Shown: piece by piece, positions 11,769 through 40,463 of the stretch
Layout: each line of letters begins with the position of its first letter
How positions within the stretch are numbered: position 1 is the first letter of the stretch
Origin: an uncultured Clostridia bacterium
GTDB taxonomy: Bacteria > Bacillota > Clostridia > Christensenellales > UBA1242
Direction: 5' to 3'
Length of the DNA stretch: 64,000 bases
NCBI GenBank assembly: GCA_947588355.1
Contig: CANPYI010000004.1
Location: forward strand, 1,244 to 65,243
The notes under the pieces: model-generated
Told to the model about the DNA's origin: nothing
Database searches by the model: none
Seen by the model: only the letters and a program-made list of their open reading frames with translations
Position numbers and translations under genes: made by a program

Positions 11769-12971
11769 TTATTCTATTATTTGAGAAACAACACCAGAGC
11801 CAACTGTTCTGCCACCTTCACGGATAGCGAAACGAAGTCCTTGTTCGATAGCAATCTCTTTTGAAAGTTCGATTGTCATCTTAACATTGTCGCCTGGCAT
11901 AACCATTTCAACGCCTTGTGGAAGTTCGATTGTTCCAGTAACGTCAGTTGTACGGAAATAGAATTGTGGACGATATCCATTGAAGAATGGTGTGTGACGT
12001 CCACCTTCTTCCTTCTTCAAAACGTAAACTTCGGCAGCAAATTTTGTATGTGGGTGAATTGAACCTGGTTTGCAAAGAACTTGTCCTCTTTCGATTTCAT
12101 TTCTTTGAATACCACGAAGAAGAATGCCGACATTGTATCCTGCGATACCTTCATCAACAGTCTTTCTGAACATTTCAACACCAGTAACAACTGTTTGTTT
12201 CTTTGCGCCCATACCAACGATTTCAACAACGTCGTTGATCTTAACTTTTCCTCTTTCGATTCTTCCTGTTGCAACAGTTCCACGTCCTGTAATTGTGAAG
12301 ACGTCTTCAACTGGCATCAAGAAAGGTTTGTCAGTGTCACGAACTGGGTCTGGGATATAAGAATCAAGAGCATCAAGAAGTTGTTCGATGCATGTGCAAG
12401 CAGGGTCATTGATATTTCCAGCTTGAGCGGCTTCCAAAGCCTTCAAAGCAGAGCCTTTGATGATTGGAGTTTTGTCTCCTGGGAATCCATATTCTGTCAA
12501 AAGGTCACGGATTTCCATTTCAACAAGGTCAAGAAGTTCTGGATCATCAACTTGATCAGTTTTGTTCATGAAAACAACGATATAAGGAACGCCAACCTGT
12601 CTTGCAAGCAAGATGTGTTCACGTGTCTGAGGCATTGGACCATCAGTTGCAGCAACAACAAGGATTGCTCCGTCCATCTGAGCGGCACCAGTGATCATGT
12701 TTTTAACATAGTCAGCGTGTCCCGGGCAGTCAACGTGTGCATAGTGACGTTTGTCTGTTTGATACTCAACGTGTGCAGTGTTGATTGTGATTCCGCGCGC
12801 TTTTTCCTCTGGCGCTTTATCGATTTCGTCATATCTCATTTTTTGAGCATAACCCTTTGCAGCCTGATACATTGTGATGGCAGCAGTAAGGGTTGTTTTA
12901 CCATGGTCAACGTGTCCGATTGTTCCTACATTGACATGGAGTTTGGTGTTATCATATTTTCCAACAGCCAT
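11769..12971 (-). CDS. tuf: elongation factor Tu
   Basis: 400 aa with [17 protein letters not shown] and NKTD motifs. Confidence 0.98.
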
Positions 12972-13060
12972 TTTAAAAATCTCCTTTAATTTTATTACTC
13001 TGATAGTTTATCACATATTTTTTGAAATTCAAAACAAAATTTGAAAGTTTTTCAAAAAAT

Positions 13061-15133
13061 TTATTGTTTTTTTCTTGCTCCGACAATTCCTTCGGCGATA
13101 TTTTTTGGAACTTCGTTATATTTCAAAAATTCCATAGTGAAAGTTCCGCGTCCTTGTGTTTGAGAACGAAGGTCTGTGGCATAGCCAAACATTTCTCCAA
13201 GTGGCACTTCGGCATTGACAACTTGCACGCCTGGACGTGTTTCGTTTCCTGTCAAAATTCCACGACGAGAAGTGAGGTTGCCCATAACCGTTCCAAGATA
13301 GTCATCTGGAACTTCAACCTGCACTTTCATAATAGGTTCCAAAAGCACAGGATTTGCCTTTGCAGCGCCGTCTTTGAACGCCATAGAGCCGGCAATCTTA
13401 AATGCCATTTCAGATGAGTCGACTTCGTGATAAGAGCCGTCAATAACTGTAACTTTAAAGTCCACAGTTTCGTATCCTGCAACGACACCTGTCTTGCTTG
13501 CTTCTTGAATTCCGTTGTTGATTGGTTGAATATATTCTTTTGGAATAGAGCCACCAACGGTCTTGTCTTCAAATTGATATCCAGAGCCTGGTGCAAGAGG
13601 TTCGATGTCGATGATACAATGACCATACTGACCTTTACCACCGCTTTGACGGATAAATTTGCCTTCTGCACGAGTTGCCTTTCTGATAGTTTCTTTGTAA
13701 GCAACTTGAGGTTTACCTACATTTGCTTCCACCTTAAATTCACGCAAAAGTCTGTCAACGATGATTTCAAGGTGAAGTTCGCCCATACCGGCAATAATTG
13801 TTTGTCCAGTTTCTTGATCAGTGTAAGTTTTGAAAGTTGGATCTTCTTCTGCAAGTTTGATAAGTGCAAGCACCATCTTTTCTTGCATAAGTTTTGTTTT
13901 AGGCTCGATAGCAACGCGAATAACTGGGTCTGGGAATTCCATGCTTTCCAAAACGATAGGATGCTTTTCGTCACAGAGGGTTTCGCCGGTGATTGTGTCT
14001 TTAAGACCTACGATAGCGGCGATGTCGCCTGCTCCAACCTCTTTGATTTCTTCACGTTGATTGGCGTGCATACGAATAAGTCGTCCAACACGTTCTTTTT
14101 CGCCCTTATTTGAGTTGTAAACATAAGAGCCGGCAGTCAGTTTTCCGGAATAAACACGGAAGAACGCCAATCTTCCAACAAATGGGTCAGTCATAATCTT
14201 AAATGCAAGTCCGGCAAATGGAGCGTCCTCACTTGGAGCACGAGTTTCAGTTTGCTCTGTTTCTGGGTTTACACCTTCAATGTGGTCAATATCCAATGGA
14301 CTTGGCAAGTATTCAACCATGCAGTCCAAAAGCATCTGAACACCTTTGTTTTTGTAAGAAGAACCGCAAATTACAGGCACGATTTCACGAGAAATTGTTG
14401 CCTTGCGAAGTGCTTTTTTAAGTTCGTCAACACTTATTTCTTCGCCCTCAAAATATCTTTCAAGCAAAGCATCGTCTGTTTCAACGATTTTTTCGACCAT
14501 TTCATTGTGAAGTTGTTCTGCCTTAGCCTTATACTCCTGCGGAATTTCTTCAACATCAATTTTTGTGCCGAGGTCATCTTCATAAACCTCCGCTTTCATT
14601 GTCATAAGGTCAATAATTCCTGCAAAAGAATCTGCCTCACCAATTGGCATTTGAATTGCCAGTGGGTTTGTCTTCAATCTTTCGCGAATTGATTCAACAC
14701 AGCCATAAAAGTCGGCAGCATCACGGTCCATTTTGTTGACATAGATGATTGTTGGAACTTTGTACTTTGTGGATTGACGCCAAACAGTTTCTGTTTGAGG
14801 TTGCACCTTGTCACGAGCAGAAAGCACCAAAACCGCACCATCAAGCACTTTCAGTGAACGTTCAACTTCAACAGTAAAGTCAACGTGTCCCGGAGTGTCG
14901 ATAATGTTGATTTTGTGGCCTTTCCAATGACAGGTTGTGCAAGCAGAAGTGATTGTGATACCACGTTCCTGTTCCTGTGCCATCCAGTCCATAGTTGCCT
15001 CACCATCATGCACTTCACCGATTTTGTGGTTTTTGCCGGTGTAGAACAAGATACGTTCTGTTGTAGTGGTTTTTCCGGCATCAATATGAGCCATGATTCC
15101 GACATTTCTGGTAAGTTCAAGATTTGTAGCCAT
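13061..15133 (-). CDS. fusA: elongation factor G
   Basis: 690 aa with AHIDAGKTT and DTPGHVDF motifs. Confidence 0.98.
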
Positions 15134-28686: not shown

Positions 28687-29355
28687 ATGTCATTTTACAT
28701 CAACAACACCAACCCAAACAGACCAGGACCAATTTGCGGTAATGTTACAAATGGAATATGTGAAAAAATCTTGATTCAAACGACAAAAGTTTTTGACGCG
28801 TGCGTTTGTTCCACGACAGAAACTGGCATTGTTTTGACCGGCACTGACTTTTTCCCAGCCAATCCTGTTCAACCGCTTACATATGTGTCAGCGGAAAACA
28901 CACAAGGACAAAGTGCAACAATTTCTGACCTTGTGATTGACCGTCTTGAAAGTTGTCCAAACTATGCAAACGTTTCTTTCACTTTGACAATTCCTGTAAC
29001 AATCACCTACAGCGATGCCACTGGTGCACTTGGCTCCGCACTTTCAACAATCACAGTAACAAAATCTGTAATTTTGTTTGTGCCACAACCTGCACTTGCG
29101 CCTATTGACATTGTTGCAACAGGGATCTTCAGCAGCAGAATCGGAAGTTTCACTGCACCAAACATCTTCACTGTGACAGGGTGTATCCAAGTTATTGTAA
29201 GAGTGGTCAGCGTGGTTGATGTCCTTGTGCCATCGTATGGCTATCCTGTTTTGCCACCTTGCAAACAAGCACCACAACAAAGTGCATGTCCAGGGCTTTC
29301 GGATTTGCCAATCTATCCAACAGCGACAGCAGTTGGCACAATTCCACAAATTTAA
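28687..29355 (+). CDS. hypothetical Cys-containing beta-rich protein (possible spore-surface component)
   Basis: Start MSFYINN behind AAGGAGG. T/V/I/S-rich with an N-terminal Cys cluster (ICGNVTNGICEKILIQTTKVFDACVC) and a C-terminal P/Q/C-rich tail. Sigma-K-like -10 CATATCATA at 28649-28657. Confidence 0.6.
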   Translation: MSFYINNTNPNRPGPICGNVTNGICEKILIQTTKVFDACVCSTTETGIVLTGTDFFPANPVQPLTYVSAENTQGQSATISDLVIDRLESCPNYANVSFTLTIPVTITYSDATGALGSALSTITVTKSVILFVPQPALAPIDIVATGIFSSRIGSFTAPNIFTVTGCIQVIVRVVSVVDVLVPSYGYPVLPPCKQAPQQSACPGLSDLPIYPTATAVGTIPQI

Positions 29356-29363
29356 AAAAAATT

Positions 29364-29389
29364 CCATCAGAAAAACTGATGGTTTTTTT
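29364..29389 (+). terminator. intrinsic terminator
   Basis: ccatcag-aaaaa-ctgatgg followed by T7. Confidence 0.8.
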
Positions 29390-29390
29390 A

Positions 29391-29420
29391 TTGTCATACA
29401 AGGCTTTCGTGTGTTATAAT
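29391..29420 (+). promoter_or_regulatory. promoter of the GDPD-family gene (extended -10)
   Basis: TTGTCA-18 nt-TGtTATAAT. The -10 ends only 6 nt before the ATG at 29427, which suggests a leaderless mRNA. Confidence 0.5.
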
Positions 29421-29426
29421 GCAAAC

Positions 29427-30367
29427 ATGAGAAAGAAAATGTTGTACATATCAATTATATCTTTTACAGTATTGTGTCTTTTGTTTGAATTTTTAAAGTT
29501 TTTCACTGACTTCAATTTTTTGTACGTAAGTTTGGCGTTTGAACTTTTTTTGGCACTTTTTCTTTGTTCACTGTTATTTCACAAAAAAACAATTTGTGTA
29601 GGCTGCATTTCTTTGCTTTTAAGCACACTTTTCATCACCCCAAACTGTATAACAATTGGATACAACGATCCCACCGCCTCTCAAACCATTATACATGCGG
29701 GGGGGGGAATTTCAACCTCTCATACTTAAATTGCCAAGAAATCTTTGATGAGGCACTCGATAAAGGGCAAAATCTTATTGAAATCGATTTTTTGCTAAGT
29801 AAAGACGAAAAGGTGATATGCTCGCATCAACTTGAATACATACAAGGATACAGTTTAAATAATCGCCCAACATACCAACAATTCAACTCTTCAATTTTGC
29901 TTGATAAATATCACCCTTTGACTCTGGAGCATATTTTTGAGCAACTGAAAAGCCACAAAAACGCAAAAATAATTTTTGATAGCAAAGAGAATGATAAAAC
30001 AAAAATACTCAGTAAAATTGTTGAAAATGCCAAAAATAACAATTTTGATATTTTTGACAAAATGATTGTCCAAATATATAGCGAGAAAAATTATCAAAAC
30101 ATAAAATCTGATGTCAATTTGTCGCAATTTAAAGAATTTTGGTACACCAATTATGTTTCAAATTTGCTTCCCTCAACTATAAATGCTATATTTGCTGACA
30201 AAAAAGACGTAAGCACTTATGTAATGAACAAACAATTTTGGCTATTTTTCACGCAATTAGGCATGAAAACAAACAAACACATCGCAGTGCATACAATAAA
30301 TGACATGGAAAGTGTGAAATTTTTAGAACAAAAAGGTGTAGACTTAATTTTCAAAGATTATTTTTAA
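29427..30367 (+). pseudogene. membrane-anchored glycerophosphodiester phosphodiesterase family protein, frameshifted at a G9 tract (phase-variable candidate)
   Basis: Frame 1 (MRKKMLYIS..., 3-4 TM) ends IIHAGGG then ISTSHT*. The frame of ORF 29564..30367 continues NFNLSYLNCQEIFDEALDKGQNLIEIDF... (GDPD-like H-x-G-G ... IE-x-D). Ten or seven G would fuse them into one 313- or 312-aa protein. Confidence 0.75.
29699..29707 (+). repeat. homopolymeric G9 tract inside a coding sequence
   Basis: gcGGGGGGGGGaattt read directly from the sequence. Confidence 0.95.
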
Positions 30368-33537: not shown

Positions 33538-33613
33538 GACCTCATAGTAAAACTGGATATTACGGCCCCCTCCTAAGGGGTTGTTCTGGGTTCGAGTCCC
33601 GGTGGGGTCACCA
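33538..33613 (+). tRNA. tRNA-Arg (anticodon CCU), CCA encoded
   Basis: Hand-folded. Acceptor gacctca/tggggtc (one G-U), U8, D stem gtaa/ttac with a GG loop. Anticodon stem gcccc/ggggt, loop cTCCTaa. T arm ctggg-TTCGAGT-cccgg, discriminator A plus CCA. Confidence 0.88.
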
Positions 33614-33615
33614 GC

Positions 33616-33651
33616 AAAAAAAACTTGTCAGGTTTTGACAAGTTTTTTTTT
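33616..33651 (+). terminator. intrinsic terminator after tRNA-Arg
   Basis: A8-cttgtca-ggtt-tgacaag-T9. Confidence 0.85.
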
Positions 33652-33781: not shown

Positions 33782-36331
33782 TTAGTCTTGTTTTTCAACA
33801 ACCTCATAAACATTTCCGTTTCCGCCCTTAACTTGAGACTTATAACCATCCTTCAAGTAAGATTGTCTGTCATTTGTGTTTGGATGTTCTGGGTTAAAGC
33901 CTGTAAATTCGCCGCCGCTAACTTCAATTTTGGCTTGTGTTTCATTTGCTTCGTCATAAATGTTTAAAGTCCACTTGCCACTATCATTTGTTGATGTAAA
34001 CTTACCGTTTGCGATTTCCACTGTTCCATTATTTACCAAAACAATAGGCGCTTTAGTTTCAAACACACCACTTTCAATCACAAGATGTCCAGCACGTTCT
34101 GGTTCCATGAATAATTGAGAACCAACATTGATTAGTGCAAGGGTGTTGCTTTTAGAAACAAATTTGCCATTTTCTTTGCTATCTTTGATTGTTAATTTTG
34201 CATTAAACACAATGAATATTGCAGAGTAGTTTGTTGTCAAAGTGTGTCCGTTGAGGTCAAGAGTGATTTGGCTTTTGGCATTTTCAAGTTGAATGTACTT
34301 TCCATCGAAAGTTATATCACTGTCCAAAACAACAGTTTGAGTTTTGGCTGCAGTCAAAGCCGTTCTGAAACTTTCTGCTGTTTTAACGTGAACATTTCCG
34401 TCTGTATATGCCTTTACAGTGTAAGTGTCACTACTTTCTTCTGCATAGAAGCCTTCTGCAACATATGATTCTTTTCCGTCATCGTTTTTAAGTTCGTCAG
34501 GATTGAATCCATGGAACTTTCCGCCCTTTACAATGATGTTTGCAGTTCCGTTTTGAGCATTTGCATTCAAGCAGTTCAAAAGGAAGTTTTTGTTTCCATT
34601 TGTCGTTTGTTTAATATCAAATTCGCCGTCGTTGATTGTGCAAATTCCATGATGAACATATACCGCATGAACATTTCCTTTGAAAGTTCCGTTTTCAATC
34701 GTCAAAGTTCCGCCATAAACGTCCAAAGCATACACATCATCTTGTTTTGCGTCAAATGTGCCATTGCCTGTAACTGTCAATTCTCCACCGTCTCTGACAG
34801 ACACAAGTGACCATCTGTCATTTTCGCCGTATCCTTCTTCGCCATCGTTACTCCAAACATCAACTGTGTTTGAGATTTTGTGTCCAGCAAGGTCAAGTGT
34901 AACATTTTTGTTTGTAACTTTGAAGATTTTTGCAGTATCCAAGGTTATGTCGCTTGTAAGAACGACATATGAATTGTCGTGTTTAAGTGCGGCTGTGAGA
35001 GTGTCAACATCTTTTGCGTAGCGATAATTTTCAGCTTCAGAAACAGTCCAAACCTGCAATTTTTCGTCTGCATTATCAGTGGTTTTTTCAACTTTATATC
35101 CATCATCAACAAAGTTTATTCCGCCAGTCAAACTTTCTGCTTTGTTGTTTGCTGGATTAAATCCGTGGAAAATTCCGCCCCTTACAATAATGTGGGCTGT
35201 TCCGTTTTTATAATATGCATCTTCACAATTCAAAAGATATCTCTTGTCGCTGTGCCCATCTGACAGTTGTTGCATGTCAAATTCTCCACCTTCAACAATA
35301 AGTGTGCCAGTTCTAACATAAACAGCATCAGCATTTCCGTTGAATTTTCCGTCTTTAATGGTCAATTCTCCGCCTTTAACTACAAACACCCAGCAATCAT
35401 CTTTCAAAGCGGTCATTTCGCCAGTTCCTTCAACTGTCAATTTTCCGTTTTCTTCCACAGAAATGAGTGCAAGTTTGTCTTGGCTTCCGTTCCAAATTGG
35501 AGTTTCGTTTTTGATTGTATGACCGCCCAAATCAAGAGTGAATGTTTTTGCCACTTCAATTTGTTTTGTCAAAACAACATCGCCATTGAGTTTTGCTGCT
35601 GAATAATGCTCAATTGCTTTTTCAAGGTCTGCCTCGCTGCCAACAAGAGCAACACCGCTTTCCTCATTCAAGTATGTCACTGTGACATTGTAAGTATCTT
35701 TAAAGAATTTGCCTTCTTCATACTCATAACTTACAGTTACTGTGTATGTTCCTACTTCACTGAAAGCAGCACCAACTGCAACTTTTGTTTCGCCTTTCAC
35801 GGCTTCTGCAGTCACCTTTTGGTAATCTGCTTGTGCAAGATCTTTCTTAGAGTCGTTTTCGTACACGCCCTTCACCTTCAATCCTGTTGTTGTGAAGTTT
35901 TCGCCAACGAGGAATGCGGTGTCAGCACCTTGCGTGTCAAGTTGAATGCCAGTAAGTTCCGGTTCTGCAACTGTGATGTCATAAGTATTTTTGAAGAATT
36001 TGCCATCTTCATATTCATAACTTACATTGACAGTATAAGTTCCTGCTTCAACAAATTCACTGCCCTCGGCAACTGTTGTTTGGCCTTTCACGGCTTCTGC
36101 GGTCACCTTTTCATAGTCTTTTTGTGCAAGTTCCTTTTCAGACTTGTTGTCATACACGCCTTTCACCTTCAAGCCTGTTGTATTAAACTCTTCGCCGGTG
36201 ATGAATGCGATATGAGCATCTTGCGTGTCAAGTGTAATGCCGGTAAGTTTTGGTTCTCCGCACGCAGTGAGCAGAACGCCGCCTACCAAAAGAAAACAAA
36301 AGCAAGCCAAAATTGATAGAATCTTTTTCAT
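33782..36331 (-). CDS. large repetitive surface lipoprotein (2 Ig-like repeats plus 3 beta-helix-like modules)
   Basis: Lipobox GGVLLTAC. Two ~97-aa repeats (LTGI.LDTQ...GTYTV.VSYEYE.GKFFK.TY). Three ~200-aa modules sharing LDL.GH, GG.LTI..G.F.GN..AVYV, GEFD, LLNC, GG.FHGFNP. Confidence 0.85.
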   Translation of the reverse strand: MKKILSILACFCFLLVGGVLLTACGEPKLTGITLDTQDAHIAFITGEEFNTTGLKVKGVYDNKSEKELAQKDYEKVTAEAVKGQTTVAEGSEFVEAGTYTVNVSYEYEDGKFFKNTYDITVAEPELTGIQLDTQGADTAFLVGENFTTTGLKVKGVYENDSKKDLAQADYQKVTAEAVKGETKVAVGAAFSEVGTYTVTVSYEYEEGKFFKDTYNVTVTYLNEESGVALVGSEADLEKAIEHYSAAKLNGDVVLTKQIEVAKTFTLDLGGHTIKNETPIWNGSQDKLALISVEENGKLTVEGTGEMTALKDDCWVFVVKGGELTIKDGKFNGNADAVYVRTGTLIVEGGEFDMQQLSDGHSDKRYLLNCEDAYYKNGTAHIIVRGGIFHGFNPANNKAESLTGGINFVDDGYKVEKTTDNADEKLQVWTVSEAENYRYAKDVDTLTAALKHDNSYVVLTSDITLDTAKIFKVTNKNVTLDLAGHKISNTVDVWSNDGEEGYGENDRWSLVSVRDGGELTVTGNGTFDAKQDDVYALDVYGGTLTIENGTFKGNVHAVYVHHGICTINDGEFDIKQTTNGNKNFLLNCLNANAQNGTANIIVKGGKFHGFNPDELKNDDGKESYVAEGFYAEESSDTYTVKAYTDGNVHVKTAESFRTALTAAKTQTVVLDSDITFDGKYIQLENAKSQITLDLNGHTLTTNYSAIFIVFNAKLTIKDSKENGKFVSKSNTLALINVGSQLFMEPERAGHLVIESGVFETKAPIVLVNNGTVEIANGKFTSTNDSGKWTLNIYDEANETQAKIEVSGGEFTGFNPEHPNTNDRQSYLKDGYKSQVKGGNGNVYEVVEKQD

Positions 36332-36397
36332 AAAACCTCCTATATATTTTCTTGTGTGAGTGAGTTTGATCGTTTTGATTTTTCACTCTCGAAAGAG

Positions 36398-36428
36398 AGT
36401 TTATCATGTGGGGGGGGGAATTTGTCAA
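36398..36428 (-). promoter_or_regulatory. promoter of the surface lipoprotein gene with a C9 tract in the spacer
   Basis: Minus strand TTGACA-aattCCCCCCCCCacaTGa-TAAACT. The spacer is 19 nt in this sequence, with an extended -10 TG. Confidence 0.6.
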
Positions 36429-36605
36429 ATGATTTTTCAAAAAAAATCAAACTTTTTCTCTTTCGACAAAAAACGCCAAATCTCACGCGCAAAATCATGA
36501 AAAAGCATCAAAAATCAGTTGTAGTTTGTGTGAAAATAAAAAATCTATTCAGCCACAAAAAAACTTGAAAGTCAAAATAATAAAAAACTTTTGATTGAAA
36601 AAGGT

Positions 36606-36634
36606 TTGACTTATCCAAAATTATCCTATATACT
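36606..36634 (+). promoter_or_regulatory. promoter of the GT8 gene
   Basis: TTGACT-17 nt-TATACT. Confidence 0.55.
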
Positions 36635-36662
36635 AAGCCTAGAACAAACGATAGGAGAAAAA

Positions 36663-37490
36663 ATGATTTCAATTTGTTACAGCGGAAACAGAGCAATCTT
36701 TGAAGGTTTGCTGATGTCGGTTATGTCGGTGGCAAAACAAACAAAGGACTCTGTGAGTATCTATGTGCTTACAATGGATTTGCATGATGAAAATCCAAAA
36801 TTCTTGCCTTTCAGCGACCAACAAATCGCACTTCTTGACGATATAGTCAAACAAAAAAACAAGGAAAGTAAAGTTGTGAAATGTGACGTGACACAACTTT
36901 ACAAAACACACCTTATTGGTGGCAAAAATCACGAAAGTGGCTACACGCCGTACTCCTTGCTTCGACTTTTGATGGACTTGGTGCCAGAAATTCCTGACAA
37001 GATTATTTATTTGGATATCGACACAATGTGCTGCTCGGATCTTAAAGATTTTTGGGACATAGATGTTGAAAATGTTGATATGGCGGCTTGCAAAGACTAT
37101 ATGGGCAGATTTTGGATAAGAACGTCATATGTCAATTCCGGAAGCATTTTGATGAACATGAAAAAAATCAAAGAAGACAATCTTTTGGAAAAATGCCGTA
37201 AAAAAGTTTACAAAAACTTTATGTTGATGCCAGACCAAACCGCATTAAACAAGTATGCAAAAATAAAACATATTCCTTTCCGTTTCAACGAACAGCGAAA
37301 GATAAAATCCGACACGGTTGTAAAACACTTTTGCAAAGGTGTTGTGTTTTTCTTGCCTTTTGGCCTACATGTTTACAACATAAAACAATGGCAAAGAGAA
37401 AAAGTTCACAAAAGTTTGAAAATCTTTGTGTTTGATGACATCTATCAGCAAGTGGACAAACTGAAAGAAAGCAGGCCAGAATGTTTTTAA
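36663..37490 (+). CDS. glycosyltransferase family 8
   Basis: Internal start MISICYSGN behind GGAGAA. GT8 features include the DxD motif (YLDIDTMC) and PDQTALN. Confidence 0.8.
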   Translation: MISICYSGNRAIFEGLLMSVMSVAKQTKDSVSIYVLTMDLHDENPKFLPFSDQQIALLDDIVKQKNKESKVVKCDVTQLYKTHLIGGKNHESGYTPYSLLRLLMDLVPEIPDKIIYLDIDTMCCSDLKDFWDIDVENVDMAACKDYMGRFWIRTSYVNSGSILMNMKKIKEDNLLEKCRKKVYKNFMLMPDQTALNKYAKIKHIPFRFNEQRKIKSDTVVKHFCKGVVFFLPFGLHVYNIKQWQREKVHKSLKIFVFDDIYQQVDKLKESRPECF

Positions 37491-38920: not shown

Positions 38921-40399
38921 TTAAAGCAAAATGCAAAGCACTCCGCCCTTGCCTTCATTGACAATTCGGCCGAGGGTCTTTTTCATCTTTCTTTGAGCAT
39001 CGGCAGGCATTGAAACTATCTTTGCACCAATGCTGTCGTCAATCAAAGAAAACAAACTTTTGCCAAAAAGGTTGGTCTCCCAAATGCCATCTGGGTCTGC
39101 TTGAAAGCGTTCGGAAAGATAACTTACCAAATCTTGACTTTGACTTTCGTTGCCAACAAGCGGAGTTACCTCTGTTTCAACATCAACCTTTATTATGTGC
39201 AAACTTGGTGCAGTGGCCTTTATTTTCACACCAAACTTGCCACCTTGTTTGACAACTTCTGGCTCTTGCAAAACATATTCGTTTTGTCGAGGCACAACAA
39301 CGCCATATCCGGTTTCGGAAACTTGGTCAAGTGCATCTTTCAGTTTGTCATACTCTTGTTTTGCAACTGCCAAATTTTTGATATATGAAACAAGTTGAAA
39401 ATCATCGTTAATTTCAAATCCACATTCGTCAGAAAGCACCTTGTAAAACAAATGTTCTTTTGGAATGACGTTAAATCGTATCACGCCCTCGCCCATTTCT
39501 ATGTTTGTGAATGTGATAGGGTCAAAACTGTCACTTTCAGTAAACACAACTGTATCTTTTTTGGCGTCGCCAATTTTTCTGACATCATCGGCAAATTTTT
39601 TTATTTCGCTGACAACTTCGGATATGATCGGGCTTGCATATGAAAGTGCCTGCATCCATTTTGGCATTCCAACCTTGATGCTTTTGACAGGAAATTCCAA
39701 AAGCACTTTTTCAAAAATCTTGTCAACATCTTCCTCTTTCATTGCTGCCACATTCATTGCCACAACTTGCGCCTGATATTTTTCTGCCAAGTTTGAAGCA
39801 AGTTTTTTGCTTTCCGCAGACGCAGGATTTTTGCAGTTAAGCACCACAACAAAAGGTTTTCCGCATGCTTTCATCTCGGCAACAACACGTTCTTCTGCAC
39901 TGACATAGTTGGCACGCTCAATATCGGTCACACTGCCATCGGTGGTCATCACAATGCCTATTGTGGAGTGGTCCTCAATCACCTTTTTTGTGCCAAGTTC
40001 TGCCGCTTCCTCAAAAGGCATCTCTTGTTCCGACCACGGAGTTTTGACAAGTCTTGGCTTGTCGTTTTCAGTCACACCCATTGCTCCAGAAACAAGAAAT
40101 CCAACGCAATCAATCATTCGCACTTTCAAATTCACATCGTCTGCCACGCAAATCGACACTGCTTCGTTTGGCACAAATCGTGGCTGAGTTGTCATGACAG
40201 TTTTTCCGTCTGCACTTTGAGGCAATTCATATTCCGCACGCTCACGAGCATTTTTGCTTGCGATGTTTGGCAGCACAAGTTTTTTCATAAACTCCGAAAT
40301 AAAAGTGGATTTGCCAACTCTTACTGGTCCAACCACGCCAACATATATATCCCCGTTTGTGCGAGTTTTAATGTCCTCATATATTTGATATTTCTCCAT
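38921..40399 (-). CDS. spoIVA: stage IV sporulation protein A (coat morphogenetic ATPase)
   Basis: Internal start MEKYQIYEDIKTRTNGDIYVGVVGPVRVGKSTFI (Walker A); 492 aa, C-terminal ...GGVLCILL. Confidence 0.95.
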   Translation of the reverse strand: MEKYQIYEDIKTRTNGDIYVGVVGPVRVGKSTFISEFMKKLVLPNIASKNARERAEYELPQSADGKTVMTTQPRFVPNEAVSICVADDVNLKVRMIDCVGFLVSGAMGVTENDKPRLVKTPWSEQEMPFEEAAELGTKKVIEDHSTIGIVMTTDGSVTDIERANYVSAEERVVAEMKACGKPFVVVLNCKNPASAESKKLASNLAEKYQAQVVAMNVAAMKEEDVDKIFEKVLLEFPVKSIKVGMPKWMQALSYASPIISEVVSEIKKFADDVRKIGDAKKDTVVFTESDSFDPITFTNIEMGEGVIRFNVIPKEHLFYKVLSDECGFEINDDFQLVSYIKNLAVAKQEYDKLKDALDQVSETGYGVVVPRQNEYVLQEPEVVKQGGKFGVKIKATAPSLHIIKVDVETEVTPLVGNESQSQDLVSYLSERFQADPDGIWETNLFGKSLFSLIDDSIGAKIVSMPADAQRKMKKTLGRIVNEGKGGVLCILL

Positions 40400-40463
40400 A
40401 AAAACCTCCCATGGAACACCATATATTATGTGAGAAACATCAAATCTAGAACATGTCACAAAA

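Follow-up and report, generated by a model that had tools for sequence, protein, structure and literature searches.

A nine-cytosine tract in the promoter spacer of a surface lipoprotein gene, a candidate slipped-strand switch in an uncultured spore-forming gut Clostridium

Contingency loci based on SSRs are textbook knowledge for host-adapted pathogens of the genera Neisseria, Haemophilus, Campylobacter, Helicobacter, and Mycoplasma. In the stretch of DNA analyzed here (64 kb in total, called the window in the following), a run of nine C residues is located between the two hexamers of a putative promoter ahead of an 849-aa lipoprotein gene, which raises the question of whether changes in the length of this run switch the expression of a surface protein. 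From the observations assembled below it is concluded that the C9 tract probably constitutes a slipped-strand switch, i.e., a contingency locus, in the spacer of a sigma-A-type promoter belonging to a monocistronic surface lipoprotein gene with a beta-solenoid, adhesin-like product.

The gene in question and the signal at its 3′-end are the following:

33782..36331, minus strand: 849-aa lipoprotein gene, the proposed regulated gene, encoding a signal peptide with lipobox, two N-terminal repeats of ~97 aa and three beta-solenoid modules
33616..33651, minus strand: intrinsic terminator, bidirectional, composed of A9, a 7-bp core stem and T8 (fold of -20.7 kcal/mol, z = -4.9)

The protein starts with MKKILSILACFCFLLVGGVLLTAC followed by G, which represents a signal peptide with lipobox (LLTAC followed by G, Cys24), and because of this lipobox a surface location of the protein is assumed. 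Pfam analysis of the 849-aa protein returned Pectate_lyase_5, a "pectate lyase-like adhesive domain," with E = 7.6e-4, which is below the curated cut-off, and a PDB sequence search with the lipoprotein yielded no match above threshold. An AlphaFold2 model based on 50 homologues reached a pLDDT of 76.8 and was confident from residue ~220 to 849, a part of the protein that forms three beta-rich modules. The best Foldseek match of this model, a weak one (E = 4.7e-3), was the beta-solenoid binding region of the SRRP (serine-rich-repeat) adhesin 5nxk of L. reuteri, with further weak matches to Rib domains, pectate lyases and autotransporter beta-helices. The lipobox, the beta-solenoid modules and the weak matches to a Pfam adhesive domain and to the SRRP fold are all features of a surface molecule, and the product is therefore described here as a putative modular, adhesin-like surface lipoprotein, a fold class that the model supports weakly. 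The gene also carries a 291-bp tandem duplication (35691-36257; 1.9 copies, 79% match), corresponding to two N-terminal Ig-like repeats. Homologues were found to contain one Ig-like repeat and two solenoid modules, compared to three of the latter in the window, which indicates that the number of domains is variable in this family.

A tRNA-Arg(CCT) gene (33538-33613, plus strand) converges on the lipoprotein gene, and both have the terminator at 33616-33651 in common. The gene downstream of the lipoprotein gene encodes a MarR-family regulator with its own promoter, and the divergent neighbor upstream is a family-8 glycosyltransferase (GT8) gene (36663-37490, plus strand). Since the lipoprotein gene possesses its own terminator and the MarR-family gene a separate promoter, the former is regarded as monocistronic. 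As far as can be read from the annotated sequence, it is a monocistronic gene with one obvious promoter, and the tract lies inside the latter. When the window (33782-37490) was compared to locus L023 of a relative (11912-14270), the synteny of spoIVA and GT8 was found to be kept, with SpoIVA being 91% identical, and metK with an upstream leader region followed GT8 at the position of the window's lipoprotein gene. The lipoprotein gene is thus missing at the syntenic site of L023, which means that it is either accessory or that the region has been rearranged.

Read on the minus strand, the region upstream of the start codon contains these elements:

36429..36458, minus strand: A/T-rich, UP-element-like stretch 5′ of the -35 hexamer, which according to an alignment is kept in the homologous promoters of loci L002 and L003 (see below)
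36423..36428, minus strand: -35 hexamer TTGACA, 6/6 to consensus, read directly in the sequence
36404..36422, minus strand: complete -35/-10 spacer, aatt-C9-acatga, 19 nt
36410..36418, minus strand: C9 tract, the proposed slippage site within the spacer (G9 on the plus strand)
36406-36405, minus strand: extended -10 TG, within the spacer and one base ahead of TAAACT
36398..36403, minus strand: -10 hexamer TAAACT, 4/6 to consensus, with T-12, A-11 and T-7 retained
36336..36340, minus strand: ribosome-binding site GGAGG, 4 nt ahead of the ATG

The initial annotation had proposed a pair of near-consensus hexamers with an extended -10 TG at this site, and direct reading of the minus strand confirmed both hexamers, their positions, their closeness to the consensus, and the TG. 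The same applies to the spacer length of 19 nt at C9, from which the loss of one C would yield 18 nt (C8) and the loss of two C 17 nt (C7). The site had further been placed ~60 nt upstream of GGAGG and ATG, and between the -10 hexamer and the ATG at 36331 (minus strand) 66 nt were indeed counted. In order of rank, the promoter scan between the two divergent genes (36332-36668, 337 nt, minus strand), in which -35/-10 pairs with spacers of 15-20 nt were given one point for each of the 12 hexamer positions and one more for an extended -10 TG (maximum 13), placed the poly-C promoter first with 11/13 (6/6 + 4/6 + TG), and the runners-up scored 8. The poly-C promoter is consequently the sole strong sigma-A-type candidate on this strand of the intergenic region, which bears out the earlier assignment of the tract to the promoter spacer of the lipoprotein gene. 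It is absent from the list produced by a standard scan because the spacer limit of that scan is 18 nt. An alternative -10 hexamer, GATAAA, which would leave a spacer of 17 nt at C9, was rejected, because it has neither T-12 nor T-7 and does not fit the register of the TGn-(-10) arrangement that is conserved in homologues. At the level of sequence, the tract thus lies between the -35 and the -10 hexamer of a candidate promoter, an architecture that is found again in homologues, and with nine residues it falls into the range of G/C homopolymers of at least about 7-8 nt in which slippage is expected.

How such a tract might act can be outlined from the geometry of sigma-70-type promoters, in which each base pair of spacer adds 3.4 Å in length and turns the helix by about 34 degrees. 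From geometric expectation, spacers of 17-18 nt are near-optimal and a spacer of 19 nt is poor. Slippage during replication would add or remove one C and thereby alter the spacing between TTGACA and TGnTAAACT among the 19, 18, and 17 nt given above. Both the distance and the rotational phase of the hexamers would shift and, hence, transcription initiation as well. Expression would be low or off with the genotype present in the window and high with C8 or C7. The output may be graded and not strictly on/off, a possibility that arises because the extended -10 TG lessens the dependence on the -35 hexamer. That the poly-C promoter is used, that expression depends on tract length and that switching is frequent and reversible is what we infer from this arrangement.

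The question then arises whether a C9 run at this position could simply be due to chance. The GC content of the window is 38.6%, and G runs of length 1-5 occur 8070, 1290, 86, 10 and 1 times, respectively, with the longest ordinary C runs likewise reaching 5. Beyond this length, the 64-kb window contains only two G/C runs (29699-29707 and 36410-36418), both exactly 9 nt long and both G on the plus strand, so that the run-length census agrees with the earlier statement that the tract is one of two 9-nt G/C homopolymers. By analytic extrapolation of the observed run-extension frequencies, about 0.004 runs of at least 9 nt are expected per 64 kb, and the Poisson probability of at least two is about 1e-5. 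With only ~0.004 such runs expected, the C9 tract is far beyond chance. When the window and 189 kb of fetched loci were considered together (~250 kb), every G/C run of at least 7 nt was found either in a promoter spacer or in the Gly codons of a GDPD gene. In the sequences covered, the G/C homopolymers of this clade are rare, are sited where their length would be expected to control expression, and are found in differing lengths.

If the run itself mattered, it should also be visible in related promoters. The closest homologues obtained by BLASTP, with identities referring to the matched part of the query, are P0003 (61%; locus L002, MAG GCA_947625165.1) and P0002 (45%; loci L003-L006), and in general the nearest homologues of the lipoprotein are unannotated proteins of Clostridia MAGs. 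The genomic context of P0003 and P0002 differs from that of the window, with MscL, bPH_2, and ABC transporter genes alongside. The 5′ region of the window gene can be aligned with L002 and L003 throughout the A/T-rich stretch, TTGACA, TGn-(-10), the RBS and the signal peptide, and the string ggaggttttatgaaa at the RBS shows no difference among the window, L002, L003, and the further homologous locus L007. The promoters read as follows:

Window: TTGACA-aatt-C9-acatga-TAAACT, spacer 19 nt
L002: TTGACA-agaact-C8-gtga-TACAAT, spacer 18 nt
L003: TTGACA-ata-C8-attatgc-TAGAAT, spacer 18 nt
L004, L005, L006: sequence of L003 with C9, spacer 19 nt

The TGn ahead of the -10 hexamer is also present in L002 (gTGaTACAAT) and L003 (aTGcTAGAAT), and the -35 hexamer TTGACA is conserved in L002, L003-L006, and a further locus, L025, which is described below. 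In all of these, TTGACA, poly-C, and TGn-(-10) follow each other in the same order ~60-95 nt ahead of the start codons of secreted proteins. In L002 and L003 the poly-C run starts 3-6 nt past the -35 hexamer, with the flanking bases being diverged. That the tract is kept while its flanks differ between lineages argues for selection on the run itself. Across the tract promoters, spacers of 16, 18, and 19 nt were observed, and the canonical 17 nt in none. The reading of the run as a spacer tract is thereby backed by the homologous promoters of two other lineages, in which the tract is kept with spacers of 18 or 19 nt. Conservation is most pronounced at the 5′-end of the genes, with the first 90 nt of the coding sequence (window 36242-36331 and its equivalents in L002 and L003), encoding signal peptide and lipobox, being 86-92% identical, compared to a nucleotide identity of 52-69% in the rest of the three tract-bearing genes. 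Two homologous loci, L007 and L017 (51% identity), carry no tract, which shows that not every member of the family has one. A scan of genome contigs with the family alignment yielded two loci, L009 (match to the signal peptide only) and L010 (distant), neither of them with a tract, and a scan of metagenome contigs with the DNA pattern of the conserved RBS and signal peptide yielded five unrelated chance matches, none of them with a tract.

The C8 and C9 versions of the P0002 promoter deserve closer attention, since L003-L006, two of them derived from ENA assemblies and the other two from Logan run assemblies, all encode the same 534-aa protein. The alignment of L003 and L004 comprises 9,605 columns with 0 mismatches and 1 gap, and the comparisons with L005 and L006 gave the same result. 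C8 in L003 versus C9 in L004-L006 is the sole difference in 9,604 shared bases, the sequences being identical after removal of one C, as read from consensus contigs at about 8x coverage in four assemblies whose independence is not established. The 18 A/T runs of 7-8 nt within the shared 9.6 kb are all invariant. In these contigs the single-C difference at the P0002 locus is the signature that would be expected of a hypermutable tract. Both assemblies of the window's own locus carry C9, the second one (L001 = L026) being 100% identical over 5,398 bp and possibly derived from the same sample, and exact look-ups with the 849-aa protein and the neighboring GT8 protein retrieved one other contig, which is identical to the window. 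Tract-length heterogeneity, for which the initial annotation had suggested a search, was consequently seen as C8 versus C9 at the homologous P0002 locus, whereas it was not seen at the locus of the window itself. In a strain variant of the P0002 locus (L016, encoding a protein of 535 aa), the bases flanking the tract are different, and the contig starts inside the poly-C run (cccgttatgaTAGAAT, positions 1-20). This contig break at the tract is consistent with read heterogeneity or low local coverage.

G/C tracts of this kind were also found outside the lipoprotein family, namely at these two sites:

L025, 191-225, minus strand: poly-C spacer promoter, TTGACA-aaaat-C9-gc-TAAAAT, spacer 16 nt
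Window, 29699..29707, plus strand: second tract (G9), within the codons for His-Ala-Gly-Gly-Gly in the membrane GDPD gene 29427-30367

In L025, the end of the -10 hexamer is 52 nt from the ATG of a gene for a different and unrelated secreted protein (MKKKIWTVVGCFAMVLVVAATSVG...), which adjoins spoIVA. The GC content of L025 is 46%, and this locus and MAG GCA_947625515.1 represent one species, which is related to the host of the window. The corresponding contig of this MAG (L024) stops ~30 nt short of the -35 hexamer.

The second tract of the window is located within a coding sequence. With G9, the GDPD gene falls apart into ORFs 29259-29729 and 29564-30367, whereas G10 or G7 would bring it in frame to encode a 313-aa protein with a Pfam GDPD match of E = 2.9e-7. 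The restored protein is collinear from end to end with homologues of 308-312 aa, in which the motif H-[AT]-G-G-G is conserved. A 43%-identical GDPD homologue from an organism with 31% GC carries G11 at the same codons (L018, 3012-3022; L019, 546-556), and in both of these independent assemblies the gene is split into ORFs of 94 and 227 aa, which G10 would place in frame. In a further homologue (L020-L022), AGGG is encoded as GCAGGTGGCGGA, and this gene contains no tract and is intact. The earlier claim that the other 9-nt homopolymer also sits at a length-sensitive site was hence substantiated by a gene that G9 splits and G10 restores, and by a homologue with G11 at the same codons. The GDPD tract of the window looks like a translational phase-variation switch that is currently off, or like a pseudogene. 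Since this coding tract occurs in two out-of-frame lengths (G9 and G11), the G/C runs of the clade evidently do slip, with consequences for expression. On the minus strand, the surroundings of the second tract (29688-29715) read TTGAAA-tt-C9-gcatg-TATAAT with a spacer of 16 nt, which is the architecture of the lipoprotein promoter, and the bases flanking the two tracts of the window are identical at 9/10 positions (aaattC9[g/a]catg). The TTGAAA-16-TATAAT arrangement could be due to chance or represent an antisense promoter, but no gene on the minus strand follows it, and the G11 site of L018 is devoid of such hexamers.

These data also bear on the possibility that the tract is a static promoter element, i.e., a regulator site or a rigid or structured spacer, and that its rare length changes are neutral noise. 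C9 in both the window and its sole other assembly would fit such a role, as would the tight clustering of promoter tract lengths, which are 8-9 everywhere. The run is, moreover, always C on the sense strand and always starts 2-6 nt past the -35 hexamer, a regularity that might point to a sequence-specific function. Nevertheless, the sole difference within 9.6 kb of otherwise identical contigs falls into the tract, and the companion coding tract exists in two out-of-frame lengths. Furthermore, neither the flanks nor the spacer lengths (16, 18, 19) are conserved, and therefore no fixed site or geometry is kept. A static role is hence considered unlikely.

A different objection would be that transcription mainly starts from another promoter, either a distal element at 36518-36552 or one served by an alternative sigma factor, in which case TTGACA/TAAACT would be fortuitous or minor and tract length of little effect. 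The distal element (cTGaATAGATTTTTTATTTTCACACAAACTACAAC, minus strand) follows the consensus tTGnATAG(A/T)TTTTT..CACAAACTACA and is also found in the tract-less loci L007 and L017, in both of them immediately ahead of the RBS. In addition, the 19-nt spacer is beyond the usual 16-18 nt, and the promoter was not listed by the standard scan. Against this, the distal element has no match to a sigma-A -10/-35 pair at any allowed spacing, and 8/13 was the highest score of any rival candidate in the minus-strand scan of the intergenic region, which admitted spacers of 15-20 nt. The recurrence of TTGACA-polyC-TGn-(-10) in L002, L003-L006, and L025 would also be difficult to reconcile with a fortuitous match, so that transcription from elsewhere appears quite improbable. 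In the window, ~170 nt including the poly-C promoter lie between the distal element and the RBS. The distal element itself could be a second promoter, an operator or a relic of the insertion of a promoter module, and its position suggests that the poly-C promoter is a module added on the downstream side of an older region.

Artefacts of sequencing or assembly might also account for the homopolymer or for its differences in length, since homopolymers are error-prone, the coverage of the contigs is low (about 2.4-8x), and two contigs end in or near a tract. This explanation is very hard to sustain in view of the same C9 being present in the window and a SPAdes contig, and of tracts occurring at functionally equivalent positions in at least 10 contigs from several species and various assemblers (SPAdes, Logan, MEGAHIT-style). 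Moreover, two SPAdes assemblies differ from each other (C8 versus C9), which shows that the difference is not assembler-specific, and the A/T runs do not vary. Least credible of all is a role after initiation, in which an upstream promoter would start transcripts at the C run or immediately ahead of it, and reiterative transcription or a poly-C in the 5′-UTR would control expression. The only point in its favor is that the transcription unit has a homopolymer close to its 5′-end, and the place 5-9 nt upstream of the tract is occupied by the -35 hexamer and not by a -10-like one. A slipped-strand switch in the promoter spacer is more likely than any of these three, namely a static role, an artefact, or a role after initiation.

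Concerning the organism, the window encodes SpoIVA (38921-40459, minus strand; Pfam E = 1.6e-112), from which it follows that the host is an endospore-forming Firmicute. Named SpoIVA homologues belong to Candidatus Caccovivens sp. (82% identity) and to MAGs labeled "Clostridia" or "Clostridiales bacterium," and Caccovivens is placed by the NCBI taxonomy in Bacillota; Clostridia; Eubacteriales incertae sedis. Related contigs largely originate from one ENA assembly batch and from "Lapin" (rabbit) MAGs. SpoIVA, its named homologues and the sources of the related contigs together identify the host as an uncultured endospore-forming gut Clostridium.

On a more tentative level, it is conceivable, though it goes considerably beyond the single locus, that relatives of Candidatus Caccovivens (uncultured spore-forming gut Clostridia, mostly from rabbit-gut assemblies) keep a multi-locus poly-G/C "phasome." This would consist of spacer switches on several genes for secreted proteins and lipoproteins and of coding-frame switches such as that of GDPD. 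A cassette of poly-C promoter, RBS, and signal peptide might be recombinable onto other surface genes and, in the window, would lie downstream of an older region common to the tract-less homologues. What has been found is a promoter-spacer tract and a coding tract in one uncultured commensal Clostridium lineage, both conserved across species and length-polymorphic among homologues. If the proposed switch is real, slippage-based bet-hedging of surface proteins would reach spore-forming gut commensals, and surveys of phase variation in the gut microbiome that consider inversions only would overlook a class of switches. The homopolymer length in a MAG consensus could then decide whether a surface gene appears to be on or whether a gene is called a pseudogene, and homopolymer tracts might account for contig breaks.

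Searches of the open-access literature found no promoter-spacer homopolymer switch in Firmicutes, Clostridia, or gut commensals, an absence that is not equivalent to proof. This agrees with the earlier remark that the mechanism was not a described one in endospore formers.

Several known systems can be compared to the locus, which in its putative function corresponds to the spacer homopolymers of opc and porA and to the poly-C tract of the fim promoters. Phase variation via the promoter spacer has reportedly been described for opc (poly-C) and porA (poly-G) of Neisseria meningitidis. As in the window, the spacer that separates the -35 from the -10 of a surface-protein gene contains a G/C homopolymer, whose length there is roughly 9-14 nt. 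Slippage alters the spacer and leads to graded or off expression, which was reportedly measured against tract length in opc and porA, whereas for the window it is deduced from the promoter layout. The two systems further differ in that opc and porA encode unrelated outer-membrane proteins of Gram-negative pathogens, and the host of the window is an uncultured spore-forming commensal Clostridium.

In Bordetella pertussis, the length of a poly-C run is said to set the transcription of the fimbrial genes fim2 and fim3. The likeness consists in a poly-C run within the promoter and upstream of the -10. In fim2/fim3, however, about 13-15 C are located between the site of an activator (BvgA) and the -10, whereas the window has a canonical -35 hexamer and no indication of an activator.

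The vlp lipoprotein genes of Mycoplasma hyorhinis reportedly also carry a homopolymer in the promoter spacer. Here the target is likewise a surface-lipoprotein gene whose -35/-10 spacer holds the homopolymer, family members vary in how many internal repeat modules they contain, and a 5′ cassette of promoter, RBS, and signal peptide is conserved, as reflected in the window family by the higher nucleotide identity of the 5′ region (86-92% vs. 52-69%). Differences exist as well, since the vlp tract is poly-A and that of the window poly-C, and since vlp paralogues are clustered in one genome, whereas here one family gene was found per 64-kb window or fetched locus, with no cluster. There is also no sequence relationship to the Vlp proteins, and the repeats of the window protein are whole folded domains and not short C-terminal peptide repeats. 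The window gene thus most resembles vlp in gene type and in the conservation of the 5′ cassette, yet it does not belong to the Vlp family.

A review that mentions the Vlp system (PMC11868660) also lists the poly-C tract of group A Streptococcus mga, and poly-A switches in coding sequences are known from the Firmicutes B. subtilis (swrA) and L. monocytogenes (inlA), both in PMC2831843. These slippage switches, the homopolymer switches documented for Firmicutes that the literature searches retrieved, are analogous to the G9 tract in the GDPD gene of the window, but they act translationally, in the coding sequence, and not in a promoter spacer. The Clostridia entries of the review are invertible-promoter switches only, all of them from Clostridioides difficile (PMC11868660). 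Set against these systems, the locus probably adds a new instance from uncultured Clostridia to the homopolymer contingency loci already known in promoter spacers. The mechanism is a familiar one, and it is the lineage, the conservation across species, and the co-occurring coding tract that are noteworthy.
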